A stretch of DNA of 64,000 nucleotides from Eledone cirrhosa. Taxonomy: Eukaryota. Made by a program: the position numbers and the translations under genes. Under the pieces are notes generated by a model. It was not told where the DNA came from. It saw only the letters and a list, made by a program, of their open reading frames with translations, and ran no database searches. The stretch spans positions 5,084,001 to 5,148,000 of the forward strand of contig OZ024759.1 in assembly GCA_964016885.1 (NCBI GenBank), in the 5' to 3' direction. Position 1 is the first letter of the stretch; each line of letters begins with the position of its first letter. Below are positions 1,546 through 39,855 of the stretch, piece by piece.

Positions 1546-1558
1546 TTACACCACTTAC

Positions 1559-2788: not shown

Positions 2789-4260
2789 CCTGTCTGACAG
2801 TTTCTATCTTCATAACCAGCACCACACCTGTCTGACAGTTGCTACCTTCATAACCAGCACCACACCTGTCTGACAGTTGCTACCTTCATAACCAGCACCA
2901 TACCTGTCTGACAGTTGTTACCTTTATAACCAGCACCACACCTGTCTGACAGTTGCTACCTTCATAACCAGCACCACACCTGTCTGACAGTTGTTACCTT
3001 CATAACCAGCACCACACCTGTCTGACAGTTGCTACCTTCATAACCAGCACCACACCTGTCTGACAGTTGCTACCTTCATAACCAGCACCACACCTGTCTG
3101 ACAGTTGCTACCTTCATAACCAGCACCACACCTGTCTGACAGTTGTTACCTTCATAACCAGCACCACACCTGTCTGACAGTTGCTACCTTCATAACCAGC
3201 ACCACACCTGTCTGACAGTTGTTACCTTTATAACCAGCACCACACCTGTCTGACAGTTGCTACCTTTATAACCAGCACCACACCTGTCTGACAGTTGTTA
3301 CCTTTATAACCAGCACCACACCTGTCTGACAGTTGCTACCTTCATAACCAGCACCACACCTGTCTGACAGTTGCTACCTTCATAACCAGCACCACACCTG
3401 TCTGACAGTTGTTACCTTTATAACCAGCACCACACCTGTCTGACAGTTGCTACCTTCATAACCAGCACCACACCTGTCTGACAGTTGTTACCTTCATAAC
3501 CAGCACCACACCTGTCTGACAGTTGCTACCTTCATAACCAGCACCACACCTGTCTGACAGTTGCTACCTTCATAACCAGCACCACACCTGTCTGACAGTT
3601 GTTACCTTTATAACCAGCACCACACCTGTCTGACAGTTGCTACCTTCATAACCAACACCACACCTGTCTGACAGTTGTTACCTTTATAACCAGCACCACA
3701 CCTGTCTGACAGCTGCTACCTTTATAACCAGCACCACACCTGTCTGACAGTTGTTACCTTCATAACCAGCACCACACCTGTCTGACAGTTGCTACCTTCA
3801 TAACCAACACCACACCTGTCTGACAGTTGTTACCTTCATAACCAGCACCACACCTGTCTGACAGTTGTTACCTTTATAACCAGCACCACACCTGTCTGAC
3901 AGTTGCTACCTTCATAACCAGCACCACACCTGTCTGACAGTTGTTACCTTTATAACCAGCACCACACCTGTCTGACAGTTGTTACCTTCATAACCAGCAC
4001 CACACCTGTCTGGCAGTTGCTACCTTCATAACCAGCACCACACCTGTCTGACAGTTGCTATCTTCATAACCAGCACCACACCTGTCTGACAGCTGATACC
4101 TTTATAACAAGCACCACACCTCCACTACAACACACACCTGTCTGACAGCTGATACCTTTATAACTAGCACCACACCTCCACTACAACACACACCTGTCTG
4201 ACAGTTGATACCTTTATAACAAGCATCACACCTCCATTACAACACCCACCTGTCTGACAC
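2789..4260. repeat. 38-bp minisatellite (about 34 copies) plus three 56-bp units, derived from the EGF exon 3' end
   Basis: Unit cctgtctgacagttgctaccttcataaccagcaccaca; its first 33 nt match the exon end. The array begins at a retained GTAAGT donor (2784-2789). Confidence 0.96.
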
Positions 4261-4849
4261 CTGTCTGTTTCCATTACTCCTCTCACAGAGTCACTTTCAT
4301 CCATCCTCAACACATGACCCAACCATCTCACACCATTTCTTTTCACAACATTCATCAGTCGTCCTATCCCCATCATCCTTTTTAAATCATCTTTCAGCAG
4401 CCCTCAACTAATCCACTCGATCATTCTCATTTCCATTCTTTCCATAATTATTTAAATCTTGTGACTTAAATATTTTTCATATTTCAAAATAATCAATTAA
4501 ACTTTAAATTGATTTTAAAAAGGTTTTTTTTCTTTACTTTTTAAAATATTTATTGAAGTGAAATATTAATTTCTAACATAATCACATGACTTGACATTTG
4601 AAGTGATGGGGTGGGGGCTTAAAGTAATACTACCTAGTATTTTACTGGTACTTAATTAATCAACCCTGACAGTAGTGATGGATAAACCATTAAGCAAAAT
4701 AATCACATGTTTAGGGTAACAAGGGAAAAGGGGTAAATTTTAATTAAATTAAACATATTTTTCATTCTGTCAACACCTTCCATCCAATTTTCTTCCAGAA
4801 GTTATTTATGAGGTGAGGGGTGGTGGGGGATGCACACCATCATCCTTAA

Positions 4850-5483
4850 CCCTTTAGTATTTACATTACCCTATAAATACTATTATATTTTCACGGTAAG
4901 GGCTTTATCTCTCATAATTATCTCGCATAATATTGAATCTATGAGATTTTGATATTATTTATTTTGAGAACAATACCTTGCTTTGCGGCACAGAGTTACT
5001 GCCCTTTGCGTTCTGAGTTCAAAACCCGCTGAGGTTTGCTTTGCCTTTCATCCTTACGGGGTCGATAAAATAAAGTACCAGTCACGCACTGGGGTCAATT
5101 AAATCGACTTTCCCCTGAAGTAAAAATTTCAATCTACACTTCGACAATGCTGTTTATTTTAACCCTTTAGTATTTACATTACTCTGTATTTACTATTATA
5201 TTTTCACAGTAAAGTCTTGTGGAGACACTGCACCCTTTAAAACCTCCATGCTTCCTGAGATTCGCCAACACTGCACCTAATATTCCCCCTCCATACACGC
5301 GCACATATGTATATCATGACTCACACTATTCACTTCCCTGACATTTGTATAAAATAAAGTACCAGTAATGTACTGGGTAATTTGCTGGCCTTGTGCCAAA
5401 TGTAAAAACAATAATATTGAATCTATGAAATGTTTATATTATTTATTTAGAGAACAATACCTTCACATCGATATGCTAAAGGG
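4850..5483. mobile_element. Rearranged TTAA-MITE with SINE and CR1-like inserts
   Basis: ttaa|ccctttag at 4846 and again near 5160; atgctaaaggg|ttaa ending at 5487. Confidence 0.7.
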
Positions 5484-5828
5484 TTAAACTTGTTAGGGCT
5501 TCAAAAGAACTTTATGAGACCCTGCACAGAAAAGTGAAAGACAAAGTCAACCATGGCAAGATTTGAACTCAGAATAGAATGGTGGTGGTGGTGGTGGTGG
5601 TAGTGGTGGTAGTGGTGTTAGTGGCAGTGGTGGCTGGTGGTGGTGGTTGGTAGTGGTTGTGGAGGTGGTGGGGTTGTGGGTGAGGTGGTGGTGGTTGCAG
5701 TGGGAGTTGTGGTGGTTGATAGTGATGTTGGGTAGTGGTTGCGGTTGTGGTTGTGGTAGTGGTGGTAGTAGTGATGATGATGATAATAACAATGATGATA
5801 TTTATGATGATGATAGTACACCACTTAC

Positions 5829-5966
5829 CTGTCTGACAGTTGCCACCTTCATATCCAGGAGCACATCCTCCATTAGAGCAGCTACCAGTCTGTGGCTTAC
5901 ATTTACTCTTGTCAGCACAATGACACATGTTTCGACAGTTTGGTCCAAATTTTCCTCTCTTACATC
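5829..5966 (-). CDS. EGF-like exon (138 bp)
   Basis: tttgtag|..CKRGKFGPNCRNMCHCADKSKCKPQTGSCSNGGCAPGYEGGNCQT G|gtaagt. Many synonymous differences from paralogous exons, with all 8 Cys kept. Confidence 0.9.
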
Positions 5967-6889
5967 CTACAAATCAATCAATAACAAATATATATTTTGG
6001 TGTGTATTTGTGTGGCCTTGTGGTAAGGGTGTTGGACTTACAATCATAATGTCGTGAGTTCTATTCCTCAACTAGGTTGTGTGTTGTGTTCTTGAGCAAA
6101 AGTATTTCCATTCATGTTGCTCCAGTATAATAATAATTGTTTCTACTTTTGACACAAGGCCAGCAATTACCCAGTACATTACTGGTACTTTATTTTATCG
6201 ACCCCGTAAGGATGAAAGGCAAAGTTAACCTTGGTGGGATTTGAACTCAGATCATAAAGGGACGTAACTCTATGCTTCAAAGCATGGCGTCCGACTCTCT
6301 ACCAATACTGACAATCCACCGCTCCAGTATAATAATAATAATAGTGAAATTATTGTGTACAGTGCTCAGGTGCACTATAAATCATCAAAGGTGCATGTAA
6401 AGCACATAGAATAATGAACAAATGTCAGGAAAATGAACAGTGTATGAGTCATGATAAACATATGTACGTGTGTATGGAGGAGGGATATCAGGTGTAGTGT
6501 TGGCGAATTTCAGGAAGCTTGGAGATCAGTGCCAGTAATAGCTGGTGATTTAACCTTGGGATGGACTGGTGCCCTGTCCAGGGGAAGTTTTGTATTTTAA
6601 GTCACTTCATGCCATAGATAGCACTGGCCTGATGACCCTCAGCACTCGAGACACACTTTAGACATTTTTTTGTTTTTGTATATTCAACAGCCCAGTCCTT
6701 CTAACTGTCAGTAGGTATCACACTGAGCAGAGTCCACTGTATTCCCCACACCTGGACAGGATGCTAGTCCATTGCATGGTATTTCACTGCCATATTATTC
6801 TATCTACTCCAAAAGTATGACAGAAAAAGTTGATTTTGGTGGGATTTGAATACCGTTTTAAAAAAGAACTCAAAATCACAACCCATTAA

Positions 6890-7111
6890 AACCTTTAGAA
6901 TTAAAACCGGTTATATCCGGCCGGAATTCTCACACTTCTTTCTGTTCAAACCAGCCATAACTGGCTGCTCATACTTATGTTAAGGTATTGTTCTCAAAAT
7001 AGATATTATCAAAATCTCATAGATTTGATATTATGTGAGATAATTATATGAGATAAAGCCTTTACTGTGAAAATATAATAGTGTATATGAAGTAGTGTAA
7101 ATGCTAAAGGG
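6890..7111. mobile_element. TTAA-MITE copy
   Basis: Colinear with 61422-61642 and flanked by TTAA. Confidence 0.82.
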
Positions 7112-7339
7112 TTAATCTGTAACTCTACTGCCCCTGCTACTCACATCTTCCTCATGATCAACATTTAACATTCACTTCCCCTGTAACCAAGAGTGGGATG
7201 TGTCAACAGAGACCGACTCAGAACTTAATCGGAGCTACTGACCTCTCAGATGTTACTGATACATTTCATCATGACTGAAGAGGACATTCATCCATTTGTC
7301 TGGTAGATTCTCTAAAGAAATAGAACTACAAAAGAGCAC

Positions 7340-10300
7340 ACACGTGTCTGACAGGTGCTACCTTATAACCAGGACCACACCATCTACTGTAACACACCTG
7401 TCTGATAGGTGATACCTTATAACCAGGACCACACCATCTACTGTAACACACCTGTCTGACAGGTGCTACCTTATAACCAGGACCACACCATCTACTGTAA
7501 CACACCTGTCTGATAGATGATACCTTATAACCAGGACCACACCATCTACTGGAACACACCTGTCTGACAGGTGCTACCTTATAACCAGGACCACACCATC
7601 TACTGTAACACACCTGTCTGATAGATGATACCTTATAACCAGGACCACACCATCTACTGTAACACACATGTCTGACAGGTGCTACCTTATAACCAGGACC
7701 ACATCATCTACTGTAACACACCTGTCTGATAGATGATACCTTATAAACAGGACCACACCATCTACTGTAACACACCTGTCTGACAGGTGCTACCTTATAA
7801 CCAGGATCACACCATCTACTGTAACACACCTGTCTGACAGGTGCTACCATATAACCAGTAGCACACCATCTACTGGAACACACGTGTCTGACAGGTGCTA
7901 CCTTATAACCAGGACCACACCATCTACTGTAACACACCTGTCTGACAGCTGCTACCTTATAACCAGGACCACACCATCTACTGGAACACACCTGTCTGAC
8001 AGGTGCTACCTTATAATCAGGACCACACCATCTACTGTAACACACCTGTCTGATAGATGATACCTTATAACCAGGACCACACCATCTACTGGAACACACC
8101 TGTCTGACAGGTGCTACCTTATAACCAGGACCACACCATCTACTGTAACACACCTGTCTGATAGATGATACCTTATAACCAGGACCACACCATCTACTGT
8201 AACACACATGTCTGATAGCTGCTACCATATAACCAGGACCACACCATCTACTGTAACACACCTGTCTGATAGATGATACCTTATAACCAGGACCACACCA
8301 TCTACTGTAACACACCTGTCTGACAGGTGCTACCTTATAACCAGGACCACACCATCTACTGTAACACACCTGTCTGACAGGTGCTACCTTATAACCAGGA
8401 CCACACCTTCTACTGTAACACACCTGTCTGACAGGTGCTACCTTATAACCAGGACCACACCATCTACTGTAACACACCTGTCTGACAGGTGCTACCTTAT
8501 AACCAGGACCAGACCTTCTACTGTAACACACCTGTCTGACAGGTGCTACCTTATAACCAGGACCACACCATCTACTGTAACACACCTGTCTGACAGGTGC
8601 TACCTTATAACCAGGACCACACCATCTACTGTAACACACATGTCTGATAGCTGCTACCTTATAACCAGGACCACACCATCTACTGTAACACACCTGTCTG
8701 ACAGCTGCTACCATATAACCAGGACCACACCATCTACTGTAACACACCTGTCTGATAGATGATACCTTATAACCAGGACCACACCATCTACTGTAACACA
8801 CCTGTCTGACAGGTGCTACCTTATAACCAGGACCACACCTTCTACTGTAACACACCTGTCTGACAGGTGCTACCTTATAACCAGGACCACACCATCTACT
8901 GTAACACACCTATCTGACAGGTGCTACCTTATAACCAGGACCACACCTTCTACTGTAACACACCTGTCTGACAGGTGCTACCTTATAACCAGGACCACAC
9001 CATCTTCTGTAACACACCTGTCTGACAGCTGCTACCATATAACCAGGACCACACCATCTACTGTAACACACCTGTCTGATAGCTCCTACCTTATAACCAG
9101 GACCACACTATCTACTGTAACACACTTGTCTGACAGGTGCTACCTTATAACCAGGACCACACCATCTACTGTAACACACCTGTCTGATAGATGATACCTT
9201 ATAACCAGGACCACACCATCTACTGGAACACACCTGTCTGACAGGTGCTACCTTATAACCAGGACCACACCATCTACTGTAACACACCTGTCTGATAGAT
9301 GATACCTTATAACCAGGACCACACCATCTACTGTAACACACATGTCTGACAGGTGCTACCTTATAACCAGGACCACATCATCTACTGTAACACACCTGTC
9401 TGATAGATGATACCTTATAAACAGGACCACACCATCTACTGTAACACACCTGTCTGACAGGTGCTACCATATAACCAGGATCACACCATCTACTGTAACA
9501 CACCTGTCTGACAGCTGCTACCATATAACCAGTACCACACCATCTACTGGAACACACGTGTCTGACAGGTGCTACCTTATAACCAGGACCACACCATCTA
9601 CTGTAACACACCTGTCTGACAGCTGCTACCTTATAACCAGGACCACACCATCTACTGGAACACACCTGTCTGACAGGTGCTACCTTATAACCAGGACCAC
9701 ACCATCTACTGTAACACACCTGTCTGATAGATGATACCTTATAACCAGGACCACACCATCTACTGGAACACACCTGTCTGACAGGTGCTACCTTATAACC
9801 AGGACCACACCATCTACTGTAACACACCTGTCTGACAGGTGCTACCTTATAACCAGGACCACACCATCTACTGTAACACACCTGTCTGACAGGTGCTACC
9901 TTATAACCAGGACCACACCATCTACTGTAACACACATGTCTGATAGCTGCTACCTTATAACCAGGACCACACCATCTACTGTAACACACCTGTCTGACAG
10001 CTGCTACCATATAACCAGGACCACACCATCTACTGTAACACACCTGTCTGACAGGTGCTACCTTATAACCAGGACCACACCTTCTACTGTAACACACCTG
10101 TCTGACAGGTGCTACCTTATAACCAGGACCACACCATCTACTGTAACACACCTATCTGACAGGTGCTACCTTATAACCAGGACCACACCTTCTACTGTAA
10201 CACACCTGTCTGACAGGTGCTACCTTATAACCAGGACCACACCATCTTCTGTAACACACCTGTCTGACAGCTGCTACCATATAACCAGGACCACACCATC

Positions 10301-13300
10301 TACTGTAACACACCTGTCTGATAGCTCCTACCTTATAACCAGGACCACACTATCTACTGTAACACACTTGTCTGACAGGTGCTACCTTATAACCAGGACC
10401 ACACCATCTACTGTAACACACCTGTCTGATAGATGATACCTTATAACCAGGACCACACCATCTACTGGAACACACCTGTCTGACAGGTGCTACCTTATAA
10501 CCAGGACCACACCATCTACTGTAACACACCTGTCTGATAGATGATACCTTATAACCAGGACCACACCATCTACTGGAACACACCTGTCTGACAGGTGCTA
10601 CCTTATAACCAGGACTACACCATCTACTGTAACACACCTGTCTGATAGATGATACCTTATAACCAGGACCACACCATCTACTGTAACACACATGTCTGAC
10701 AGGTGCTACCTTATAACCAGGACCACATCATCTACTGTAACACACCTGTCTGATAGATGATACCTTATAAACAGGACCACACCATCTACTGTAACACACC
10801 TGTCTGACAGGTGCTACCTTATAACCAGGATCACACCATCTACTGTAACACACCTGTCTGACAGCTGCTACCATGTAACCAGTACCACACCATCTACTGG
10901 AACACACGTGTCTGACAGGTGCTACCTTATAACCAGGACCACACCATCTACTGTAACACACCTGTCTGACAGCTGCTACCTTATAACCAGGACCACACCA
11001 TCTACTGGAACACACCTGTCTGACAGGTGCTACCTTATAACCAGGACCACACCATCTACTGTAACACACCTGTCTGATAGATGATACCTTATAACCAGGA
11101 GCACACCATCTACTGGAAGACACCTGTCTGACAGGTGCTACCTTATAACCAGGACCACACCATCTACTGTAACACACCTGTCTGATAGATGATACCTTAT
11201 AACCAGGACCACACCATCTACTGTAACACACATGTCTGATAGCTGCTGCCATATAACCAGGACCACACCATCTACTGTAACACACCTGTCTGATAGATGA
11301 TACCTTATAACCAGGACCACACCATCTACTGTAACACACCTGTCTGACAGGTGCTACCTTATAACCAGGACCACACCATCTACTGTAACACACCTGTCTG
11401 ACAGGTGCTACCTTATAACCAGGACCACACCTTCTACTGTAACACACCTGTCTGACAGGTGCTACCTTATAACCAGGACCACACCATCTACTGTAACACA
11501 CCTGTCTGACAGGTGCTACCTTATAACCAGGACCACACCTTCTACTGTAACACACCTGTCTGACAGGTGCTACCTTATAACCAGGACCACACCATCTACT
11601 GTAACACACCTGTCTGACAGGTGCTACCTTATAACCAGGACCACACCATCTACTGTAACACACATGTCTGATAGCTGCTACCTTATAACCAGGACCACAC
11701 CATCTACTGTAACACACCTGTCTGACAGCTGCTACCATATAACCAGGACCACACCATCTACTGTAACACACCTGTCTGATAGATGATACCTTATAACCAG
11801 GACCACACCATCTACTGTAACACACCTGTCTGACAGGTGCTACCTTATAACCAGGACCACACCTTCTACTGTAACACACCTGTCTGACAGGTGCTACCTT
11901 ATAACCAGGACCACACCATCTACTGTAACACACCTATCTGACAAGTGCTACCTTATAACCAGGACCACACCTTCTACTGTAACACACCTGTCTGACAGGT
12001 GCTACCTTATAACCAGGACCACACCATCTTCTGTAACACACCTGTCTGACAGCTGCTACCATATAACCAGGACCACACCATCTACTGTAACACACCTGTC
12101 TGATAGCTCCTACCTTATAACCAGGACCACACTATCTACTGTAACACACTTGTCTGACAGGTGCTACCTTATAACCAGGACCACACCATCTACTGTAACA
12201 CACCTGTCTGATCGATGATACCTTATAACCAGGACCACACCATCTACTGGAACACACCTGTCTGACAGGTGCTACCTTATAACCAGGACCACACCATCTA
12301 CTGTAACACACCTGTCTGATAGATGATACCTTATAACCAGGACCACACCATCTACTGTAACACACATGTCTGACAGGTGCTACCTTATAACCAGGACCAC
12401 ATCATCTACTGTAACACACCTGTCTGATAGATGATACCTTATAAACAGGACCACACCATCTACTGTAACACACCTGTCTGACAGGTGCTACCTTATAACC
12501 AGGATCACACCATCTACTGTAACACACCTGTCTGACAGCTGCTACCATGTAACCAGTACCACACCATCTACTGGAACACACGTGTCTGACAGGTGCTACC
12601 TTATAACCAGGACCACACCATCTACTGTAACACACCTGTCTGACAGCTGCTACCTTATAACCAGGACCACACCATCTACTGGAACACACCTGTCTGACAG
12701 GTGCTACCTTATAACCAGGACCACACCATCTACTGTAACACACCTGTCTGATAGATGATACCTTATAACCAGGAGCACACCATCTACTGGAAGACACCTG
12801 TCTGACAGGTGCTACCTTATAACCAGGACCACACCATCTACTGTAACACACCTGTCTGATAGATGATACCTTATAACCAGGACCACACCATCTACTGTAA
12901 CACACATGTCTGATAGCTGCTGCCATATAACCAGGACCACACCATCTACTGTAACACACCTGTCTGATAGATGATACCTTATAACCAGGACCACACCATC
13001 TACTGTAACACACCTGTCTGACAGGTGCTACCTTATAACCAGGACCACACCATCTACTGTAACACACCTGTCTGACAGGTGCTACCTTATAACCAGGACC
13101 ACACCTTCTACTGTAACACACCTGTCTGACAGGTGCTACCTTATAACCAGGACCACACCATCTACTGTAACACACCTGTCTGACAGGTGCTACCTTATAA
13201 CCAGGACCACACCTTCTACTGTAACACACCTGTCTGACAGGTGCTACCTTATAACCAGGACCACACCATCTACTGTAACACACCTGTCTGACAGGTGCTA

Positions 13301-16300
13301 CCTTATAACCAGGACCACACCATCTACTGTAACACACATGTCTGATAGCTGCTACCTTATAACCAGGACCACACCATCTACTGTAACACACCTGTCTGAC
13401 AGCTGCTACCATATAACCAGGACCACACCATCTACTGTAACACACCTGTCTGATAGATGATACCTTATAACCAGGACCACACCATCTACTGTAACACACC
13501 TGTCTGACAGGTGCTACCTTATAACCAGGACCACACCTTCTACTGTAACACACCTGTCTGACAGGTGCTACCTTATAACCAGGACCACACCATCTACTGT
13601 AACACACCTATCTGACAGGTGCTACCTTATAACCAGGACCACACCTTCTACTGTAACACACCTGTCTGACAGGTGCTACCTTATAACCAGGACCACACCA
13701 TCTTCTGTAACACACCTGTCTGACAGCTGCTACCATATAACCAGGACCACACCATCTACTGTAACACACCTGTCTGATAGCTCCTACCTTATAACCAGGA
13801 CCACACTATCTACTGTAACACACTTGTCTGACAGGTGCTACCTTATAACCAGGACCACACCATCTACTGTAACACACCTGTCTGATAGATGATACCTTAT
13901 AACCAGGACCACACCATCTACTGGAACACACCTGTCTGACAGGTGCTACCTTATAACCAGGACCACACCATCTACTGTAACACACCTGTCTGATAGATGA
14001 TACCTTATAACCAGGACCACACCATCTACTGTAACACACATGTCTGACAGGTGCTACCTTATAACCAGGACCACATCATCTACTGTAACACACCTGTCTG
14101 ATAGATGATACCTTATAAACAGGACCACACCATCTACTGTAACACACCTGTCTGACAGGTGCTACCTTATAACCAGGATCACACCATCTACTGTAACACA
14201 CCTGTCTGACAGCTGCTACCATATAACCAGTACCACACCATCTACTGGAACACACGTGTCTGACAGGTGCTACCTTATAACCAGGACCACACCATCTACT
14301 GTAACACACCTGTCTGACAGCTGCTACCTTATAACCAGGACCACACCATCTACTGGAACACACCTGTCTGACAGGTGCTACCTTATAACCAGGACCACAC
14401 CATCTACTGTAACACACCTGTCTGATAGATGATACCTTATAACCAGGACCATACCATCTACTGGAACACACCTGTCTGACAGGTGCTACCTTATAACCAG
14501 GACCACACCATCTACTGTAACACACCTGTCTGATAGATGATACCTTATAACCAGGACCACACCATCTACTGTAACACACATGTCTGATAGCTGCTACCAT
14601 ATAACCAGGACCACACCATCTACTGTAACACACCTGTCTGATAGATGATACCTTATAACCAGGACCACACCATCTACTGTAACACACCTGTCTGACAGCT
14701 CCTACCTTATAACCAGGACCACACTATCTACTGTAACACACTTGTCTGATAGCTGCTACCTTATAACCAGGACCACACCATCTACTGTAACACACCTGTC
14801 TGACAGGTGATACCTTATAACCAGGACCACACCATCTACTGTAACACACCTGTCTGACAGCTGCTACCTTATAACCAGGACCACACCATCTACTGTAACA
14901 CACCTGTCTGACAGCTGCTACCTTATAACCAGGACCACACCATCTACTGTAACACACCTGTCTGACAGGTGCTACCTTATAACCAGGACCACACCATCTA
15001 CTGTAACACACCTGTCTGACAGGTGCTAACTTATAACCAGGACCACACCATCTACTGTAACACACTTATCTGACAGGTGCTACCTATTAACCAGGACCAC
15101 ACCATCTACTGTAACACACCTGTCTGACAGGTGCTACCTTATAACCAGGACCACACCATCTACTGTAACACACCTGTCTGATAGATGATACCTTATAACC
15201 AGGACCACACCATCTACTGTAACACACATGTCTGACAGGTGCTACCTTATAACCAGGACCACATCATCTACTGTAACACACCTGTCTGATAGATGATACC
15301 TTATAAACAGGACCACACCATCTACTGTAACACACCTGTCTGACAGGTGCTACCATATAACCAGGATCACACCATCTACTGTAACACACCTGTCTGACAG
15401 CTGCTACCATATAACCAGTACCACACCATCTACTGGAACACACGTGTCTGACAGGTGCTACCTTATAACCAGGACCACACCATCTACTGTAACACACCTG
15501 TCTGACAGCTGCTACCTTATAACCAGGACCACACCATCTACTGGAACACACCTGTCTGACAGGTGCTACCTTATAACCAGGACCACACCATCTACTGTAA
15601 CACACCTGTCTGATAGATGATACCTTATAACCAGGACCACACCATCTACTGGAACACACCTGTCTGACAGGTGCTACCTTATAACCAGGACCACACCATC
15701 TACTGTAACACACCTGTCTGACAGGTGCTACCTTATAACCAGGACCACACCATCTACTGTAACACACCTGTCTGACAGGTGCTACCTTATAACCAGGACC
15801 ACACCATCTACTGTAACACACATGTCTGATAGCTGCTACCTTATAACCAGGACCACACCATCTACTGTAACACACCTGTCTGACAGCTGCTACCATATAA
15901 CCAGGACCACACCATCTACTGTAACACACCTGTCTGACAGGTGCTACCTTATAACCAGGACCACACCTTCTACTGTAACACACCTGTCTGACAGGTGCTA
16001 CCTTATAACCAGGACCACACCATCTACTGTAACACACCTATCTGACAGGTGCTACCTTATAACCAGGACCACACCTTCTACTGTAACACACCTGTCTGAC
16101 AGGTGCTACCTTATAACCAGGACCACACCATCTTCTGTAACACACCTGTCTGACAGCTGCTACCATATAACCAGGACCACACCATCTACTGTAACACACC
16201 TGTCTGATAGCTCCTACCTTATAACCAGGACCACACTATCTACTGTAACACACTTGTCTGACAGGTGCTACCTTATAACCAGGACCACACCATCTACTGT

Positions 16301-19300
16301 AACACACCTGTCTGATAGATGATACCTTATAACCAGGACCACACCATCTACTGGAACACACCTGTCTGACAGGTGCTACCTTATAACCAGGACCACACCA
16401 TCTACTGTAACACACCTGTCTGATAGATGATACCTTATAACCAGGACCACACCATCTACTGGAACACACCTGTCTGACAGGTGCTACCTTATAACCAGGA
16501 CTACACCATCTACTGTAACACACCTGTCTGATAGATGATACCTTATAACCAGGACCACACCATCTACTGTAACACACATGTCTGACAGGTGCTACCTTAT
16601 AACCAGGACCACATCATCTACTGTAACACACCTGTCTGATAGATGATACCTTATAAACAGGACCACACCATCTACTGTAACACACCTGTCTGACAGGTGC
16701 TACCTTATAACCAGGATCACACCATCTACTGTAACACACCTGTCTGACAGCTGCTACCATGTAACCAGTACCACACCATCTACTGGAACACACGTGTCTG
16801 ACAGGTGCTACCTTATAACCAGGACCACACCATCTACTGTAACACACCTGTCTGACAGCTGCTACCTTATAACCAGGACCACACCATCTACTGGAACACA
16901 CCTGTCTGACAGGTGCTACCTTATAACCAGGACCACACCATCTACTGTAACACACCTGTCTGATAGATGATACCTTATAACCAGGAGCACACCATCTACT
17001 GGAAGACACCTGTCTGACAGGTGCTACCTTATAACCAGGACCACACCATCTACTGTAACACACCTGTCTGATAGATGATACCTTATAACCAGGACCACAC
17101 CATCTACTGTAACACACATGTCTGATAGCTGCTGCCATATAACCAGGACCACACCATCTACTGTAACACACCTGTCTGATAGATGATACCTTATAACCAG
17201 GACCACACCATCTACTGTAACACACCTGTCTGACAGGTGCTACCTTATAACCAGGACCACACCATCTACTGTAACACACCTGTCTGACAGGTGCTACCTT
17301 ATAACCAGGACCACACCTTCTACTGTAACACACCTGTCTGACAGGTGCTACCTTATAACCAGGACCACACCATCTACTGTAACACACCTGTCTGACAGGT
17401 GCTACCTTATAACCAGGACCACACCTTCTACTGTAACACACCTGTCTGACAGGTGCTACCTTATAACCAGGACCACACCATCTACTGTAACACACCTGTC
17501 TGACAGGTGCTACCTTATAACCAGGACCACACCATCTACTGTAACACACATGTCTGATAGCTGCTACCTTATAACCAGGACCACACCATCTACTGTAACA
17601 CACCTGTCTGACAGCTGCTACCATATAACCAGGACCACACCATCTACTGTAACACACCTGTCTGATAGATGATACCTTATAACCAGGACCACACCATCTA
17701 CTGTAACACACCTGTCTGACAGGTGCTACCTTATAACCAGGACCACACCTTCTACTGTAACACACCTGTCTGACAGGTGCTACCTTATAACCAGGACCAC
17801 ACCATCTACTGTAACACACCTATCTGACAAGTGCTACCTTATAACCAGGACCACACCTTCTACTGTAACACACCTGTCTGACAGGTGCTACCTTATAACC
17901 AGGACCACACCATCTTCTGTAACACACCTGTCTGACAGCTGCTACCATATAACCAGGACCACACCATCTACTGTAACACACCTGTCTGATAGCTCCTACC
18001 TTATAACCAGGACCACACTATCTACTGTAACACACTTGTCTGACAGGTGCTACCTTATAACCAGGACCACACCATCTACTGTAACACACCTGTCTGATCG
18101 ATGATACCTTATAACCAGGACCACACCATCTACTGGAACACACCTGTCTGACAGGTGCTACCTTATAACCAGGACCACACCATCTACTGTAACACACCTG
18201 TCTGATAGATGATACCTTATAACCAGGACCACACCATCTACTGTAACACACATGTCTGACAGGTGCTACCTTATAACCAGGACCACATCATCTACTGTAA
18301 CACACCTGTCTGATAGATGATACCTTATAAACAGGACCACACCATCTACTGTAACACACCTGTCTGACAGGTGCTACCTTATAACCAGGATCACACCATC
18401 TACTGTAACACACCTGTCTGACAGCTGCTACCATGTAACCAGTACCACACCATCTACTGGAACACACGTGTCTGACAGGTGCTACCTTATAACCAGGACC
18501 ACACCATCTACTGTAACACACCTGTCTGACAGCTGCTACCTTATAACCAGGACCACACCATCTACTGGAACACACCTGTCTGACAGGTGCTACCTTATAA
18601 CCAGGACCACACCATCTACTGTAACACACCTGTCTGATAGATGATACCTTATAACCAGGAGCACACCATCTACTGGAAGACACCTGTCTGACAGGTGCTA
18701 CCTTATAACCAGGACCACACCATCTACTGTAACACACCTGTCTGATAGATGATACCTTATAACCAGGACCACACCATCTACTGTAACACACATGTCTGAT
18801 AGCTGCTGCCATATAACCAGGACCACACCATCTACTGTAACACACCTGTCTGATAGATGATACCTTATAACCAGGACCACACCATCTACTGTAACACACC
18901 TGTCTGACAGGTGCTACCTTATAACCAGGACCACACCATCTACTGTAACACACCTGTCTGACAGGTGCTACCTTATAACCAGGACCACACCTTCTACTGT
19001 AACACACCTGTCTGACAGGTGCTACCTTATAACCAGGACCACACCATCTACTGTAACACACCTGTCTGACAGGTGCTACCTTATAACCAGGACCACACCT
19101 TCTACTGTAACACACCTGTCTGACAGGTGCTACCTTATAACCAGGACCACACCATCTACTGTAACACACCTGTCTGACAGGTGCTACCTTATAACCAGGA
19201 CCACACCATCTACTGTAACACACATGTCTGATAGCTGCTACCTTATAACCAGGACCACACCATCTACTGTAACACACCTGTCTGACAGCTGCTACCATAT

Positions 19301-22090
19301 AACCAGGACCACACCATCTACTGTAACACACCTGTCTGATAGATGATACCTTATAACCAGGACCACACCATCTACTGTAACACACCTGTCTGACAGGTGC
19401 TACCTTATAACCAGGACCACACCTTCTACTGTAACACACCTGTCTGACAGGTGCTACCTTATAACCAGGACCACACCATCTACTGTAACACACCTATCTG
19501 ACAGGTGCTACCTTATAACCAGGACCACACCTTCTACTGTAACACACCTGTCTGACAGGTGCTACCTTATAACCAGGACCACACCATCTTCTGTAACACA
19601 CCTGTCTGACAGCTGCTACCATATAACCAGGACCACACCATCTACTGTAACACACCTGTCTGATAGCTCCTACCTTATAACCAGGACCACACTATCTACT
19701 GTAACACACTTGTCTGACAGGTGCTACCTTATAACCAGGACCACACCATCTACTGTAACACACCTGTCTGATAGATGATACCTTATAACCAGGACCACAC
19801 CATCTACTGGAACACACCTGTCTGACAGGTGCTACCTTATAACCAGGACCACACCATCTACTGTAACACACCTGTCTGATAGATGATACCTTATAACCAG
19901 GACCACACCATCTACTGTAACACACATGTCTGACAGGTGCTACCTTATAACCAGGACCACATCATCTACTGTAACACACCTGTCTGATAGATGATACCTT
20001 ATAAACAGGACCACACCATCTACTGTAACACACCTGTCTGACAGGTGCTACCTTATAACCAGGATCACACCATCTACTGTAACACACCTGTCTGACAGCT
20101 GCTACCATATAACCAGTACCACACCATCTACTGGAACACACGTGTCTGACAGGTGCTACCTTATAACCAGGACCACACCATCTACTGTAACACACCTGTC
20201 TGACAGCTGCTACCTTATAACCAGGACCACACCATCTACTGGAACACACCTGTCTGACAGGTGCTACCTTATAACCAGGACCACACCATCTACTGTAACA
20301 CACCTGTCTGATAGATGATACCTTATAACCAGGACCATACCATCTACTGGAACACACCTGTCTGACAGGTGCTACCTTATAACCAGGACCACACCATCTA
20401 CTGTAACACACCTGTCTGATAGATGATACCTTATAACCAGGACCACACCATCTACTGTAACACACATGTCTGATAGCTGCTACCATATAACCAGGACCAC
20501 ACCATCTACTGTAACACACCTGTCTGATAGATGATACCTTATAACCAGGACCACACCATCTACTGTAACACACCTGTCTGACAGCTCCTACCTTATAACC
20601 AGGACCACACTATCTACTGTAACACACTTGTCTGATAGCTGCTACCTTATAACCAGGACCACACCATCTACTGTAACACACCTGTCTGACAGGTGATACC
20701 TTATAACCAGGACCACACCATCTACTGTAACACACCTGTCTGACAGCTGCTACCTTATAACCAGGACCACACCATCTACTGTAACACACCTGTCTGACAG
20801 CTGCTACCTTATAACCAGGACCACACCATCTACTGTAACACACCTGTCTGACAGGTGCTACCTTATAACCAGGACCACACCATCTACTGTAACACACCTG
20901 TCTGACAGGTGCTAACTTATAACCAGGACCACACCATCTACTGTAACACACTTATCTGACAGGTGCTACCTATTAACCAGGACCACACCATCTACTGTAA
21001 CACACCTGTCTGACAGGTGCTACCTTATAACCAGGACCACACCATCTACTGTAACACACCTGTCTGATAGACGATACCTTATAACCAGGACCACACCATC
21101 TACTGTAACACACCTGTCTGACAGGTGCTACCTTATAACCAGGACCACACCATCTACTGTAACACACCTGTCTGACAGCTGCTACCTTATAACGAGGACC
21201 ACACCATCTACTGTAACACACCTCTCTGACAGGTGCTACCATATAACCAGGACCACACCATCTACTGTAACACACCTGTCTGATAGATGATAACTTATAA
21301 CCAGGACCACACCATCTACTGTAACACACCTGTCTGATAGATGATACCTTATAACCAGGACCACACCATCTACTGTAACACACCTGTCTGACAGGTGCTA
21401 CCTTATAACCAGGACCACACCATCTACTGTAACACACCTGTCTGATAGATGATACCTTATAACCAGGACCACACCATCTACTGTAACACACCTGTCTGAT
21501 AGATGATACCTTATAACCAGGACCACACCATCTACTGTAACACACCTGTCTGATAGATGATACCCTATAACCAGGACCACACCATCTACTGTAACACACC
21601 TGTCTGACAGGTGCTACCTTATAACCAGGACCACACCATCTACTGTAACACACCTGTCTGATAGATGATACCTTATAACCAGGACCACACCATCTACTGG
21701 AACACACCTGTCTCACAGGTGCTACCTTATAACCAGGACCACACCATCTACTGTAACACACCTGTCTGACAGGTGCTACCTTATAACCAGGACCACACCA
21801 TCTACTGTAACACACCTGTCTGACAGGTGCTACCTTATAACCAGGATCACACCATCTACTGTAACACACCTGTCTGACAGGTGCTACCTTATAACCAGGA
21901 CCACACCATCTACTGTAACACACCTGTCTGATAGATGATACCTTATAACCAGGACCACACCATCTACTGTAACACACCTGTCTGACAGGTGCTACCTTAT
22001 AACCAGGACCACACCATCTACTGTAACATACCTGTCTGATAGATGATACCTTATAACCAGGAACACACCTTCCACTGGAACACACACCTG
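7340..22090. repeat. 54-bp minisatellite, about 270 copies, exon-derived, with higher-order structure
   Basis: Unit cctgtctgacaggtgctaccttataaccaggaccacaccatctactgtaacaca. Variant patterns recur at 1674 bp (31 units) and 5886 bp (109 units). Confidence 0.98.
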
Positions 22091-22150
22091 TCTCTGTGTT
22101 ACACCTACTATCATCTTGACTAAATATATTAAGTAACAAACAAAGCTTAC

Positions 22151-22288
22151 CTGTCTGACAGTTGCTACTTTCATAACCAGCAGTACATCCTCCTCTAGAA
22201 CACACACCTGTCTGTTTGTTACATTTACTGTTGTCAGCACAGTAACATGTGTTGCCACAGTTGGCTCCAAATTTTCCATTTCTACAGA
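22151..22288 (-). CDS. EGF-like exon (138 bp)
   Basis: ttccacag|..CRNGKFGANCGNTCYCADNSKCNKQTGVCSRGGCTAGYESSNCQT G|gtaagc. Confidence 0.85.
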
Positions 22289-22564
22289 CTGTGGAAATAA
22301 AAATATGAGAACAATAACAATAACAACAACATATAACACTATACAAGATAATGCTTCTGATTTAGGCACAAGGCCAGCAATTTTAGGGGAGGAGAAAATC
22401 AATTAAATCGACCCCAGTGTGTGACTGGTACTTCATTTTATCAACCCTGTTGGGATGAAAGGGATAGCTACCACAATTCTATCATCTATATTATAGCGTT
22501 GTCATCTATACTATATCTATATCATCTGTACTATATTTGTATCATCTTAATTTCCATGTTTCTA

Positions 22565-23012
22565 ACACCCATGTATATGCCTACAAAGTCAGAAAACAGC
22601 ACAGCTCCCATGACTTTCGGAAACATTTTTTCAAGCTCAGAGTTGCTGAAGCATGGAACAAACTACCTGCATCAGTTGTTAGCTGTCGAGACACATCCTT
22701 TACAACCGCCATGGAACAAACTAATTGCATCAGTTGTTAGCTGTCGAGACACTACATCCTTTAAAACCTCCATGGAACAAACTACCTGCATCAGTTGTTA
22801 GCTGTCGAGACACTACATCCTTTAAAACCTCTATGCTTCCTGAGATTCGTCAACACTGCACCTGATGTCCCCCCTTCCATACACACGCACACATGTATTT
22901 CATGACTCTAACACTGTTCCTTTTCCTGACATTTAAACATTATTCTATGTACTATACATGCACCTTTGATGAGTTGTAGTGCACCTGAGCACTGTACACA
23001 ATAATTTCATTA
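22565..23012 (+). mobile_element. CR1/L2-type LINE 3' fragment with internal duplication (related pieces at about 5220-5350 and 6340-6525)
   Basis: RKHFFKLRVAEAWNKLPASVVS resembles a CR1 ORF2 C-terminus; shared 3' UTR. Confidence 0.7.
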
Positions 23013-23191
23013 TTATATTATTTTATACTCCAGTGGTATGACCTAAACTATATATAATCCATACTATATCTATACAATCTATATGATTTCCGTAACATCG
23101 ATATTATGTCTATATACTTGCCGATTCTCTACACTCCATACCAATGTTATACTATATATTCATGAGGCTATGATATCCCCTTTATATTGTA

Positions 23192-23528
23192 AGCACATAG
23201 CTTAGTAGTTAGAGCATTGGCCTTGCAATCGAAAGGTTGTGAGTTCAATTCTCAGACCGGGTGATGTGTTGTTTCCTTGAGCGGGACACTTTATTTCCCA
23301 TTGCTCCAGTTTACTCAGTTGTAGAAATGAGATGATAGGGACTGGGGTCCATATCATTCCACTGCAAAGTGGTCCTGGAGGTGCCACGGCAAAAAACACC
23401 CAATACTCACTGTAAATGAGGTTGGTGTTAGGAAGGGCATCCAGCTGTAGAAATCAAGCCAGAATCAGTTTCCGTCCCACCCTTGTAAGCAGGGAAATGC
23501 AGACGTAAAATGATGATGATGATGATTG
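23192..23528 (+). mobile_element. tRNA-derived SINE, family A (also 34390-34720 +, 35545-35877 -, 52270-52435 +; related heads near 6010, 28405, 53090, 61215, 63568)
   Basis: A box (tagtggttagagc), B-box-like gagttcaattc, core ccttgagcaagacactttatttcacattgctccag and (GAT)n tail. Confidence 0.8.
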
Positions 23529-23703
23529 TAGCTCCAAAACAGTTTAAATCTACCTGTCTCACAGGTGTTACCTTCATAACCAGCACTACACCCTCCACTA
23601 AAACACACACCTGTCTCTGTGTTACACTTAGCTGTGTGTTACACCTACTGTCATCTTGACTCAATATATCATGTTAGAAACAAAGCTATACTACACCACT
23701 TAC

Positions 23704-23841
23704 CTGTCTGACAGTTGCTACCTTCATAACCAGCAGTACATCCTCCACTAGAACACACACCTGTCTGTTTGTAACACCTGTTATTATCAGCACAGTGGCA
23801 TGTGTGTTTACAGTTAGCTCCAAATTTACCAATGTCACAGG
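23704..23841 (-). CDS. EGF-like exon (138 bp)
   Basis: attacag|..CDIGKFGANCKHTCHCADNNRCYKQTGVCSSGGCTAGYEGSNCQT G|gtaagt. Confidence 0.85.
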
Positions 23842-24111
23842 CTGTAATATGAAATGTAATGTAAACAGTTTGAACAATTTCAAGATATAATATTTAGAAT
23901 TATTAACCTTTTTGATATCAAAATACCTGACACCGATTAACTGTTTTACTCTATATATTTATCTAAAAACCTCCCACTATAGTGTTATGTAAGAACTTTT
24001 GTTAAGTTATGTTCCATCCAAAATATTAGTGATGAAAATCTCAGTTATATAACTATAGCCCTTCAAATTCTTCATTATATAAAAATTTGTTTAAATTTGT
24101 ATGCAATATAT

Positions 24112-24722
24112 TTCTTTAGTAATATGGTAATGAAAGGATTAATGACATAGACAGTGTCTTTAAGTAGAAATATGGTAATGAAAGGGTTAATGATATAGAC
24201 AGTGTCTTTAAGTAGAAATATGTAATGAAAGGGTTAATGACATAGACAGTGTCTTTAAGTAGAGATATGGTAATGAAAGGGTTAATGACATAGACAGTGT
24301 CTTTAAGTAGAAATATGGTAATGAAAGGGTTAATGACATAGACAGTGTCTTTAAGTAGAGATATGTAATGAAAGGGTTAATGACATAGACAGTGTCTTTA
24401 AGTAGAAATATGGTAATGAAAGGGTTAATGACATAGACAGTGTCTTTAAGTAGAGATATGTAATGAAAGGGTTAATGACATAGACAGTGTCTTTAAGTAG
24501 AAATATGGTAATGAAAGGGTTAATGATATAGACAGTGTCTTTAAGTAGAGATATGTAATGAAAGGGTTAATGACATAGACAGTGTCTTTAAGTAGAAATA
24601 TGGTAATGAAAGGGTTAATGACATAGACAGTGTCTTTAAGTAGAGATATGTAATGAAAGGGTTAATGACATAGACAGTGTCTTTAAGTAGAAACTTGGTA
24701 ATGAAAGGTTTAATGACATAGA
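24112..24722. repeat. 47/48-bp minisatellite, array 1
   Basis: Unit gacatagacagtgtctttaagtagaaatatggtaatgaaagggttaat. Confidence 0.95.
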
Positions 24723-25080
24723 GTCTATGTCATTAAGCCTTAATCCAAATATTCAATTACTTTGAAGCAAGAAACAAATGCAAATATCCGACTAACTTGA
24801 ATTTTCCATCGGATTTTAAAATTATTTTACGTATTTTTGCTATATTAGTTTTTTTAACTTAATATTATTATTTTTCTATTGTATTTCTTTATAATTATGT
24901 GAATACAAAAATATTTTATATTGTAACTTTTTATGTTAAATAATAAATGACTATAAAACTATACAAAAACTATAATAATTTCACAAAAGTCGCATTCATA
25001 GGTATATCAACTTATGCGACCTCCTTTATTACTGCCTAATTTAAATGTGGCCTCTAATGGTAAAAAGGTTCCTCTCCTCT

Positions 25081-25850
25081 GACATAGACAGTATCTTTCA
25101 TTAGAAATATGGTAATGAAAGGGTTAATGACATAGACAGTGTCTTTTATTAGAAATGTGGTAATGAAAGGGTTAATGACATAGACAGTGTCTTTTATTAG
25201 AAATGTGGTAATGAAAGGGTTAATGACATAGACAGTGTCTTTTATTAGAAATGTGGTAATGAAAGGGTTAATGACATAGACAGTGTCTTTTATTAGAAAT
25301 GTGGTAATGAAAGGGTTAATGACATAAACAGTGTCTTTCATTAGAAATATGGTAATGAAAGGGTTAATGACATAGACAGTGTCTTTTATTAGAAATGTGG
25401 TAATGAAAGGGTTAATGACATAGACAGTGTCTTTCATTAGAAATGTGGTAATGAAAGGGTTAATGACATAGACAGTGTCTTTTATTAGAAATGTGGTAAT
25501 GAAAGGGTTAATGACATAGACAGTGTCTTTCATTAGAAATATGGTAATGAAAGGGTTAATGACATAGACAGTGTCTTTCATTAGAAATGTGGTAATGAAA
25601 GGGTTAATGACATAGACAGTGTCTTTTATTAGAAATGTGGTAATGAAAGGGTTAATGACATAGACAGTGTCTTTCATTAGAAATATGGTAATGAAAGGGT
25701 TAATGACATAGACAGTGTCTTTCATTAGAAATGTGGTAATGAAAGGGTTAATGACATAGACAGTGTCTTTTATTAGAAATGTGGTAATGAAAGGGTTAAT
25801 GACATAGACAATGTCTTTCATTAGAAATATGGTAATGAAAGGGTTAATTA
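25081..25850. repeat. 48-bp minisatellite, array 2 (about 16 copies)
   Basis: Unit gacatagacagtgtctttcattagaaatatggtaatgaaagggttaat; abuts the donor of exon 25864-26001. Confidence 0.95.
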
Positions 25851-25863
25851 CTACACCATATAC

Positions 25864-26001
25864 CTGTCTGACAGTTGCTACCTTCATAACCAGCAGCACA
25901 TCCTCCACTAGAACACACACCTGTCTGTTTGTTACATTTACTGTTGTCAGCACAGTGACATGTGTTGCCACAGTTGGCTCCAAATTTACCTGATTTACAG
26001 A
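25864..26001 (-). CDS. EGF-like exon (138 bp), weaker GTATAT donor
   Basis: tttccag|..CKSGKFGANCGNTCHCADNSKCNKQTGVCSSGGCAAGYEGSNCQT G|gtatat. Confidence 0.8.
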
Positions 26002-26109
26002 CTGGAAATAAAATATGAGAACAATGACAATTATAACAACATTTACACTATACAAGATAATAAATATCACAATATTATATTATCTATATCATAATGTTGT
26101 CATCTATAC

Positions 26110-28282
26110 CAGAGGTCGGCATCCTTTTGGGGTGTGCGGGCCACATTGCTATGGAGTGTCACACAGGCAGGCCACATTTCTATGCAGTGTCTCACTGGCA
26201 GGCCACATTGTTACGAAGTGTCTTGTCAGTTGCTCACATTGCTATACAGTGTCTTGTCAGCAGGCCACATTGCTATACAGTGTCTTGTCAGCAGGCCACA
26301 TAGCTATGGAGTGTCTTGTCAGCAGGCCACATAGCTATGGAGTGTCTTGTCAGCAGGCCACATAGCTATGGAGTGTCTCACCAGCAGGCCACATTGCTAT
26401 ACAGTGTCTTGTCAGCAGGCCACATTGCTATACAGTGTCTTGTCAGCAGGCCACATAGCTATGCAGTGTCTCACCAGCAGGCCACATAGCTATGGAGTGT
26501 CTAGTCAGCAGGCCACATAGCTATGGAGTGTCTCACCAGCAGGCCACATTGCTATGCAGTGTCTTCTCAGCAGGCCATATTGCTATGCAGTGTCTCACCA
26601 GCAGGCCACATGGCTATGGAGTGTCTCACCAGCAGGCCACATAGCTATGCAGTGTCTCGTCAGCAGGCCATATTGCTATGCAGTGTCTCGTCAGCAGGCC
26701 ACATAGCTATGTAGTGTCTCAGCAGCAGGCCACATAGCTATGGAGTGTCTCACCAGCAGGCCACATAGCTATGGAGTGTCTTGTCAGCAGGCCACATAGC
26801 TATGTAATGTCTCGCCAGCAGGCCACATAGCTATGTAGTGTCTTGTCAGCAGGCCACATAGCTATGTAATGTCTCGCCAGCAGGCCACATAGCTATGCAG
26901 TGTCTCACCAGCAGGCCACATAGCTATGCAGTGTCTCGTCAGCAGGCCATATTGCTATGCAGTGTCTCGTCAGCAGGCCATATTGCTATGCAGTGTCTCA
27001 CCAGCAGGCCACATAGCTATGCAGTGTCTCGTCAGCAGGCCACATTGCTATACAGTGTCTTGTCAACAGGCCATATAGCTATGGAGTGTCTCACCAGCAG
27101 GCCACATAGCTATGTAGTGTCTTGTCAGCAGGCGACATAGCTATGGAGTGTCTCACCAGCAGACTACATAGCTATGCAGTGTCTCACCAGCAGGCCACAT
27201 TGCTATGCAGTGTCTCACCAGCAGGCCACATAGCTATGCAGTGTCTCGTCAGCAGGCCATATTGCTATGCAGTGTCTCGTCAGCAGGCCATATTGCTATG
27301 CAGTGTCTCACCAGCAGGCCACATAGCTATGCAGTGTCTCGTCAGCAGGCCACATTGATATACAGTGTCTTGTCAACAGGCCATATAGCTATGGAGTGTC
27401 TCACCAGCAGGCCACATAGCTATGTAGTGTCTTGTCAGCAGGCGACATAGCTATGGAGTGTCTCACCAGCAGACTACATAGCTATGCAGTGTCTCACCAG
27501 CAGGCCACATTGCTATGCAGTGTCTCACCAGCATGCCACGTAGCTGTGCAGTGTCTCGTCAGCAGGCCACATTGCTATGCAGTGTCTCGTCAGCAGGCCA
27601 CGTAGCTATGTAGTGTCTCGTCGGCAGGCCATGATATCAAATAAGTAATGAGAACATATGTAAAAAGAATGCAGTAATATAATAAAATACTCTGACATTT
27701 TTAATAAACTCTGACAAAGCCATGACACCTGGCAGTGTATTTAAACCAGGGTTGCCATTTGTTCAGTGAACATATTTACTTCTAATAATACTGAACACTT
27801 TTAACATAGAAAAATAAATAAACATTGATTATTATCAAATACAGTCCCTTACAGATGTTTTACTACCAGACAGTTAACTAAAATGAACAATTTTGAGGAT
27901 GAAATGAAATAACTATGTCAGACATACTGACTTTTTTAGGTAAGTCTGGGTCATTTCACATCCCTGCCATACAGATACTATGTATGTACATATATACACG
28001 AATACACACACACAGTCCCTTTGACCTCGATGTCTGACTATTCTATCTCTCTGAGTTTGATTGTTTCTTACTGTCACATTAAAACATTACGTTCAGTTAA
28101 GTGAGTCTTGAGGTTAGACGTGTTCTCTAGTTGGTATTTTAATCCCAAATAATTCAGAACACATTTTCAGGGGATGGCTTAGTCAAAGATTGAAACCTGT
28201 CGGCAGGCCAGATGTCGCCCGTGGGCCAGATGTGGACCGCGGGCCAGATGTGGCCTACGGGCCAGGGATTTAATGACCCCTA
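26110..28282. mobile_element. Non-autonomous hAT transposon carrying a 31-bp internal tandem array (about 26140-27630)
   Basis: Termini cagaggtc / gaccccta, perfect 8-bp TSD ATCTATAC (26102-26109, 28283-28290) and subterminal gggcca repeats. Unit gcaggccacatagctatgcagtgtctcacca, with a 310-bp (10-unit) higher-order duplication. Confidence 0.85.

Positions 28283-35385: not shown

Positions 35386-35419
<34 letters not shown>

Positions 35420-37857: not shown

Positions 37858-37905
<48 letters not shown>

Positions 37906-38359: not shown

Positions 38360-38405
<46 letters not shown>

Positions 38406-39814: not shown

Positions 39815-39855
<41 letters not shown>

Follow-up and report, generated by a model that had tools for sequence, protein, structure and literature searches.

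An exon-derived 54-nt satellite in an intron of an octopod EGF-repeat gene: probable birth between short direct repeats in a dead exon copy

How does a satellite array begin? According to a study of the CapA satellite, the origins of satellites are rarely traceable because the seed gets erased (10.1101/213868). The question is raised anew by 64,000 nucleotides (nt) of Eledone cirrhosa DNA (GenBank assembly GCA_964016885.1, contig OZ024759.1, positions 5,084,001 to 5,148,000 of the forward strand). This whole stretch is hereafter called the window, and positions are counted from its first letter. Through the window runs a minus-strand gene in which two putative exons for galactose-binding domains (near 63.3 kb and near 53.5 kb) precede a series of symmetric phase-1 138-nt EGF exons; all exons, relics and exon-born arrays discussed below lie on the same strand. 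Between two of the EGF exons lies a satellite of 272 full 54-nt units (7351..22038), about 14.7 kb in total. Our reading is that this array is non-coding, that it probably arose when microhomology mediated a duplication within a dead EGF exon copy, and that it grew by ordinary unequal exchange.

The part of the EGF exon in question is the 57-nt interval between two AGACAGGT motifs, one in the middle of the exon and the other at the splice donor. The commonest satellite unit is identical to this interval at 42-47 of 57 positions in all 10 exons tested (z 7.8-10.2), with three gap positions in each of the two alignments printed. None of 1000 dinucleotide shuffles reached the unit-exon score for any of the 10 exons. 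Thus an earlier note on this DNA was right that the 54-bp unit is the exon interval with small indels, and the alignment to the exon is better than to shuffled sequence. The same note had claimed that each EGF exon contains the 9-mer CAGACAGGT twice, which is too general: the 9-mer pair, 57 nt apart, is found in 6 of 11 near-identical exon copies. The pair of the 8-mer AGACAGGT with the same spacing is found in 8 of the 11 copies, as well as in the seed described below and where one satellite unit meets the next. In the relic from which the array starts the sequence is GAGACAGGT (E-T-G), so that the usable match there is 8 nt.

This half-exon relic (22039..22117) stands between the array and an intact 138-nt EGF exon with a consensus donor (22151..22288). 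Its sequence, DDSRCNTETGVCSSGRCVPGY at about 22,053-22,115, joins the first unit directly, as the earlier note had described with a position within 2 nt of ours. The 56-nt interval of the relic (22,039-22,094), designated U0, is the boundary unit of the array; it begins 56 nt past the donor at 22,150, with the relic between. Other half-exon relics are present in the introns: a single relic of the same lineage at 23551..23640, two with 17-nt internal duplications at 32714..32925, a truncated one at 28562..28600, and a single-copy relic at 34932..34985 with an internal deletion of the kind seen in the 38-nt units of a second array. Among the intact exons, the one at 38128..38265, which encodes T-E-T-G and has the TTAC allele, is a joint best match to the unit. 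The parent of the array was probably a non-coding lineage of intronic relics that resembles exon 38,128, and not the adjacent coding exon.

A possible intermediate between exon and array is located 12 kb from the array. At 33805..33904, at the end of a pseudo-exon, an unamplified dimer consists of a U0-like 57-nt unit and a truncated 44-nt unit resembling the second unit, U1. A two-unit query against the masked window matched best at 33,809-33,896 (87.6% over 89 columns, E 3e-24), compared with E 2e-14 for the best exon match. The dimer is identical to the satellite unit at 40 of 44 positions with one gap, while the 10 exons reach 33-37 of 46 with three gaps, and it matches U0 and U1 of the array at 86 of 104 columns. 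Its second unit shares with the satellite the 2-nt loss at the junction and two substitutions. In the window, each of the three unit-diagnostic patterns occurs once outside the two exon-born arrays, and all three occurrences fall in 33,825-33,846. The earlier note had named abundance of the unit at unrelated loci as an observation that would count against its reading. Our search covered the window, and there the diagnostic patterns are confined to the exon-born arrays and this dimer. The dimer retains the exon state at three sites that have changed in the array, which marks it as a precursor rather than as the remains of a collapsed array. Since the diagnostic junction is already present in the dimer, it is older than the array and was copied by module duplication. 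The dimer looks like the preserved seed of the satellite. In a 57-column tree the unit and the seed group together with support 68/89.

Direct repeats of this size are not rare. Exact 8-mer repeats 30-100 nt apart occurred in 350 of 2000 random 140-nt windows (17.5%), and 9-mer repeats in 194 of 2000; these windows were drawn from non-array DNA, exons and dispersed repeats included. The argument for microhomology therefore rests on the unit junction hitting the motif exactly.

The same motifs are involved in a second exon-born array (2788..4267), which consists of three 56-nt units followed by 34 38-nt units. It uses the same two motifs, its last unit runs up to a consensus donor followed by the usual beginning of an intron, and no 5' exon half is present upstream. 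There are four ACAGGT- or CAGGT-type motifs in the exon, the last of them at the donor. A 17-nt deletion (exon copy 1,948) and the 17-nt duplications of the relics fall at the further motif copies. Trees did not decide whether the 54-nt and the 56/38-nt arrays have a common relic ancestor (approximately unbiased test, p-AU 0.40-0.43). Microhomology explains the seeding of a repeat twice in the host gene.

The strongest alternative, which we regard as a real possibility but not as the probable one, is that the exon origin is incidental: any local DNA would amplify at this locus, and exon pieces would be hit according to their abundance. It contests the cause of the array, not its ancestry. Twelve tandem arrays together occupy 32,716 of the 64,000 bp of the window, and ten of them are not exon-derived; a 60-nt unit matches the module intron, and 72/73-nt units match a dispersed element. 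The frequency of 8-mer pairs in random windows points in the same direction. However, one motif pair carries the junctions of both exon-born arrays, and in other copies a neighbouring pair is the site of the 17-nt deletion and of the 17-nt duplications. In our reading, microhomology explains the site and manner of birth, and locus-wide tandem amplification explains the size.

A somewhat less likely alternative concerns the first duplication, the later growth being unchanged. The dimer could have arisen by unequal recombination or end-joining of two paralogous exon copies at a common motif. Both at the seed and in the array U0 has TTCC and U1 has TTAC, the alleles of U0 and U1 match different exons (1,559 and 38,128), and recombination has turned the modules of the locus into a mosaic. 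An ancestor like 38,128 with a later change in U0 would nevertheless give an identical pattern, and the full-length junction of the second array is consistent with local duplication. The earlier note had suggested that microhomology-driven slippage in a duplicated exon seeded the satellite. Of this, our analysis supports the descent from the exon and an initial duplication that took place in a duplicated piece of exon, between short direct repeats. The parent is better sought in the relic lineage, and slippage within one copy is indistinguishable from recombination between two paralogous copies.

Tandem Repeats Finder called a single array at 7,338-22,085, in agreement with the earlier note. 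Cutting it in phase gave the 272 full units without a single indel, in 41 variants with a mean pairwise difference of 5.8%, and a partial last unit. This partial terminal unit (7333..7350) stops just beyond the motif, and a splice donor does not follow. The motif borders the array on both ends. A motif-bounded array with a partial last unit is the signature of both published birth models as presented in PMC3389668.

The interior of the array is homogenised, and the boundary unit U0 differs from it by eight substitutions and 2 nt. Of the eight substitutions specific to U0, five recur in the array among its eight commonest polymorphisms (hypergeometric p 3.4e-6; 282 of 529 variant calls), as expected if unequal exchange shuffled U0 and U1. 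The direction of this exchange is secure for one U0 allele only, namely that also carried by the U0 of the seed. The 11 singleton units all lie at index 0-17 or 250-270 of 272. Seven of them belong to the monomeric zone of 19 units that adjoins the relic (21013..22038), where the open frame is free of stops. The rest of the array (7351..21012) is a higher-order region marked by nine marker units with spacings of 31, 31, 25, 22, 31, 31, 25 and 31 units. It comprises nine copies of a 22-31-unit block; the 31-unit blocks are 0-0.6% apart compared with 5.8% for monomers. The array thus has the feature of satellites with higher-order repeats, multi-monomer blocks that are more alike than monomers. 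Finally, 5,959 bp are duplicated exactly within 9227..21071, the copies beginning at 9,227 and 15,113 (lag 5,886). This duplication may be the latest expansion or an assembly artefact.

If it is an artefact, the length of the array is partly spurious and its true size is about 8.9 kb. We consider this unlikely. The 5,959-bp duplicate indeed has zero mismatches. However, divergence within the array is graded, from 5.8% between monomers through 0.12-0.6% between non-identical 31-unit blocks to 0 in the last block, as real serial expansion would give, and zero indels over 14.7 kb suggest accurate reads.

The following history would account for these structures. First, the EGF exon-intron module was tandemly duplicated many times, as the exon series in the window displays. 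Second, partial duplications presumably left the half-exon relics, of which at least seven are present in introns. Third, one relic lineage would have doubled the interval from the mid-exon AGACAGGT to the donor AGACAGGT, giving the dimer U0-U1. Several of the observations above argue well for this step. The U0-U1 junction would have lost one GT, and the unamplified copy would persist at 33,805-33,904. Fourth, the copy behind exon 22,151 would have lost one further base, reaching 54 nt, and unequal crossing-over would have expanded it, mixing U0 and U1 alleles. Fifth, as the structure shows, a 22-31-unit block was repeated to the nine copies now seen, and a 109-unit block was duplicated once more, unless this last copy is an artefact of assembly. 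Most of the array length came later than the birth, by higher-order block duplications that do not need microhomology.

Several observations weigh against this history or parts of it. Two 5' U0 alleles show no enrichment near U0, being found in 1 of 19 and 0 of 19 proximal units, compared with 37 and 24 of 253 distal units, and U0 may have acquired three 3' alleles from the array. The 5' half of U0 is unlike that of U1 at the seed as well as in the array, which makes two distinct parents possible. A simple single-step duplication predicts a donor and an intron start at the distal array end, and neither is present there. The distal flank matches intron starts no better than shuffled sequences do (127-291 of 500 and 17-269 of 300 shuffles), and the same is true of the seed tail (38-258 of 500). 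The 57-column trees are weak: two runs gave the relic lineage support values of 88/84 and 54/84, and descent from the adjacent exon was rejected only marginally (p-AU 0.042; 0.147 with U0 included). Four EGF exon copies are frameshifted with their splice sites kept; all EGF exons are phase 1-1, so these copies are skippable without loss of frame. The three youngest exons, including the neighbour of the array, have ratios of non-synonymous to synonymous differences (pN/pS) of 1.0-2.1 on few changes. Splicing of exon 22,151 to exon 5,829 is itself inferred.

Two candidate similarities were rejected by the same shuffle comparisons: a weak BLAST extension beyond the distal array end into an intron-like flank, and a match by eye between the seed tail and an intron start.

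The unit length is a multiple of three, and one frame of the unit is open. We considered a coding role for the array and rejected it, as the substitution pattern is without constraint and stops occur in 29 of 272 units (31 stops in all). The substitutions include six synonymous, 26 non-synonymous and five stop changes. The array holds 217 CAG-GTGTGT sites, and its donor-like sites are all out of frame, the first lying at +119 nt. Neutral-type substitutions, stops, the lack of a polyadenylation signal and out-of-frame donors lead us to read the array as non-coding. Most likely splicing discards it along with the rest of the intron, and it serves no function itself. A Pfam integrase match on a 462-codon frame involved a stretch of 12 residues, no stretch passed, and we treated the match as a repeat artefact.

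Two further alternatives are much weaker. The satellite could have originated elsewhere, in a paralogous gene or within a mobile element, and then have been inserted or converted into the intron; this is very unlikely, even though in Octopus the family comprises several paralogs. The array shares register and orientation with the relic, the seed dimer is in the same gene, and the Q-T-G...Q-T-G pairing was found in none of the 15, 6 and 4 repeats of the compared proteins P0002 (Octopus sinensis), P0012 and P0027 (both Octopus vulgaris), respectively. Least of all do we credit the first 19 units with being a new coding tail, reached by skipping the donor at 22,150 and giving a secreted form with 18-residue Cys-Gly-Tyr repeats: the 462-codon open frame (20,973-22,361) does span the exon, the relic and the 19 units, the two deletions of the unit cancel out and leave C-Y-S-R-W-C-G-P-G-Y in the EGF frame, and the first stop is in unit 19, where the higher-order region begins, but the exon has a consensus donor, the synonymous share of the distinct changes in the 19 units (3 of 14) equals the neutral share (21.6% of sites; hand count), 19 stop-free units are expected with a chance of about 0.1 at the stop rate of the array (hand estimate), and neither AATAAA nor ATTAAA is present in the array.

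The next intact EGF exon, at 5829..5966, closes a host intron of 16,184 nt, which is 91% satellite and the longest in the window. It is about three times as long as the mean intron of Octopus minor, 5.4 kb (PMC6279123). Intron gigantism in the sense of PMC6508621 refers to megabase introns. Like the host intron, those of Drosophila kl-3 and kl-5 described there are filled mostly with satellite, but theirs is a simple satellite and they are of megabase size, so that the 16-kb host intron is about 100-fold smaller (PMC6508621). The ten non-exon arrays of the window total 16,483 bp and the two exon-derived ones 16,233 bp. Therefore the claim of the earlier note that the exon drives intron gigantism fails: the exon gave a seed, and its driving of intron size is not supported.

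The host gene has ten intact and four frameshifted EGF exon copies in the window (1034..48381). The intact exons start at 1,034, 5,829, 22,151, 23,704, 25,864, 32,970, 35,032, 38,128, 45,896 and 48,244, and the frameshifted copies are at 1,559-1,695, 1,948-2,067, 34,160-34,296 and about 41,270-41,403. The ten exons have eight cysteine columns, seven of which are invariant. Five of six EGF exons matched Pfam PF24887, all below the cut-off. The pooled pN/pS of the seven young intact exons is 0.39 (37 non-synonymous and 21 synonymous differences, binomial p 0.002, the comparisons not being independent).

The first putative galactose-binding (F5/8 type C-like) exon is at 63149..63394; alone it matches PF22633 with E 7.3e-5 and 23.8 bits, below the cut-off of 27.8. 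The second (53475..53666, boundaries approximate) is an open frame with a weak match and, alone, no Pfam match. It divides the 14,773-nt interval after the first exon into two introns. By tblastn the galactose-binding region matches three Octopus proteins with E 1e-14 to 7e-13. A profile of the ten EGF exons has as its best named match a MEGF6-like protein of Octopus sinensis (E 1e-132). This protein combines galactose-binding, EGF and tyrosine-phosphatase domains, an architecture shared by two Octopus vulgaris proteins. Parts of the Octopus proteins map onto the window in the same order. A tblastn search with the phosphatase region of these homologues gave no match in the window; the gene continues past its low end.

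The gene thus resembles molluscan MEGF/galactose-binding receptor tyrosine phosphatases, in which a galactose-binding domain is followed by 8-Cys EGF repeats. Identity to the Octopus receptor phosphatases is 37-40% for the first galactose-binding exon and up to 61% for full-length matches of EGF exons, and such low values suggest that the host gene is a paralog or a distant ortholog. A single-exon homolog search yielded one candidate and nothing usable. No close relative with a sister-species copy of the gene was found among the best 150 of 3,345 matches, where single-exon identity was 70-72% at best. For the exons between 1,034 and 38,265, the closest single-exon matches (61-72%) are to amphioxus and other repeats, closer than the Octopus proteins. 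This is probably convergence in short Cys/Gly-rich repeats. Related snail genes, SudRes1, sit in a parasite-resistance region (PMC12297450).

Birth of minisatellites between direct repeats was reportedly modelled by Haber and Louis in 1998 and by Taylor and Breden in 2000. As summarized in PMC3389668, the sequence between direct repeats of 5-10 bp is duplicated, and the terminal unit is incomplete. Both features were found here: the AGACAGGT pair provides a repeat of this size at both ends of the interval, and the last unit is partial. The case differs in that the substrate is a coding exon, the second repeat is the splice donor, and the pre-amplification dimer is retained in a paralogous module.

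The closest known counterparts are the mirage minisatellites of amphioxus, described in Adh3 and in the globins BflGb6 and BflGb9 (PMC3087553). They are copies of the end of the gene's own exon with its splice signal, arranged in tandem in the adjacent intron, with cryptic AG/GT sites in the units, a homogenised interior and divergent boundary units (PMC3087553). Here, too, the unit corresponds to an exon end with a splice signal, as the identity to the exon and the CAG-GTGTGT sites indicate. As to a unit that spans the exon-intron boundary, only the GT is possibly intronic, and the mid-exon motif contains this GT as well; the longer duplications that formed the relics do take in about 50 nt of intron. 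BflGb6 has 3-6 units (PMC3087553), whereas the present array has 272 units and higher-order structure. Unlike the mirage repeats, its unit is almost wholly exonic, it was seeded from a dead relic, and the gene is of mollusc type. The mechanism of mirage repeats is called unclear in PMC3087553, while here the microhomology is defined and a seed is preserved. Of the five mirage features considered, two are clearly shared, the exon-end unit with its splice signal and the homogenised interior with divergent boundary units; we call the array mirage-like and do not file it as a mirage member.

The CapA satellite of New World monkeys was likewise traced into a protein-coding gene, but its source is an intron, its monomers are 1.5 kb long, and up to 100,000 copies are located away from the gene (10.1101/213868). 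The present satellite stems from an exon and is known from one local array.

The value of the locus is that exon, relic, seed, monomers, higher-order repeat and last block duplication are all kept within 40 kb. With all stages preserved in one stretch, the direct-repeat birth model is testable in sister species. The array also brings mirage-type repeats into a gene of mollusc type, with about 50 times as many copies as reported for the amphioxus globins, and offers a mechanism for them. In the literature searched, with subscription journals mostly outside its scope, we found no report of an exon-derived array of such size or in a cephalopod. Neither a new function nor intron gigantism is shown here, and the processes are already known. 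A bolder view, which we consider improbable, is that the exon acts as a satellite factory. Its four motifs would make relics, dimers and arrays across an octopod receptor family; an array would have consumed an exon at 2.8-4.3 kb; and either the 54-nt unit would be spreading to further loci as a satellite family derived from a coding exon, or the 200-odd cryptic donors and variable length would alter splicing and the number of EGF modules in an immune-type receptor.

The other arrays of the window are of diverse origin. The unit of the 60-nt array at 1-984 matches the module intron at 1,754-1,811, 2,676-2,740 and 34,055-34,110; judging from these matches, the array is apparently an intron-born satellite within the host gene. 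One 48-nt unit makes up two arrays (24,116-25,848 and 28,650-32,692). Both begin immediately after the end of an exon or a relic and share the flank there; the array may therefore be older than a module duplication. No source of the 48-nt unit was found in the masked window. The 72/73-nt arrays (48,842-51,672, 54,285-54,706 and 60,327-61,121) derive from a dispersed element present at 4,859, 5,172, 7,028, 47,925 and 61,559. The ends of this element, TTAA and then CCCTTT, are presumably those of a piggyBac-type miniature element. A 31-nt array is at 26,139-27,631, an ACC array at 41,428-42,411 and a 51-nt array at 42,485-45,863. The last grades into a degenerate copy at 42,426-42,462, and this fading edge suggests local birth too.

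A minus-strand retrotransposon of the kind lacking long terminal repeats (non-LTR) is inserted within the 72-nt array at about 54,700-60,320. Its frames for endonuclease (57,139-58,368) and reverse transcriptase (55,379-56,920) are interrupted between. A GC-richer stretch at about 39,950-41,170, also on the minus strand, by eye resembles a second retrotransposon fragment. Finally, one intron contains a 614-bp direct duplication with 93% identity (35,979-36,592 and 37,286-37,899).

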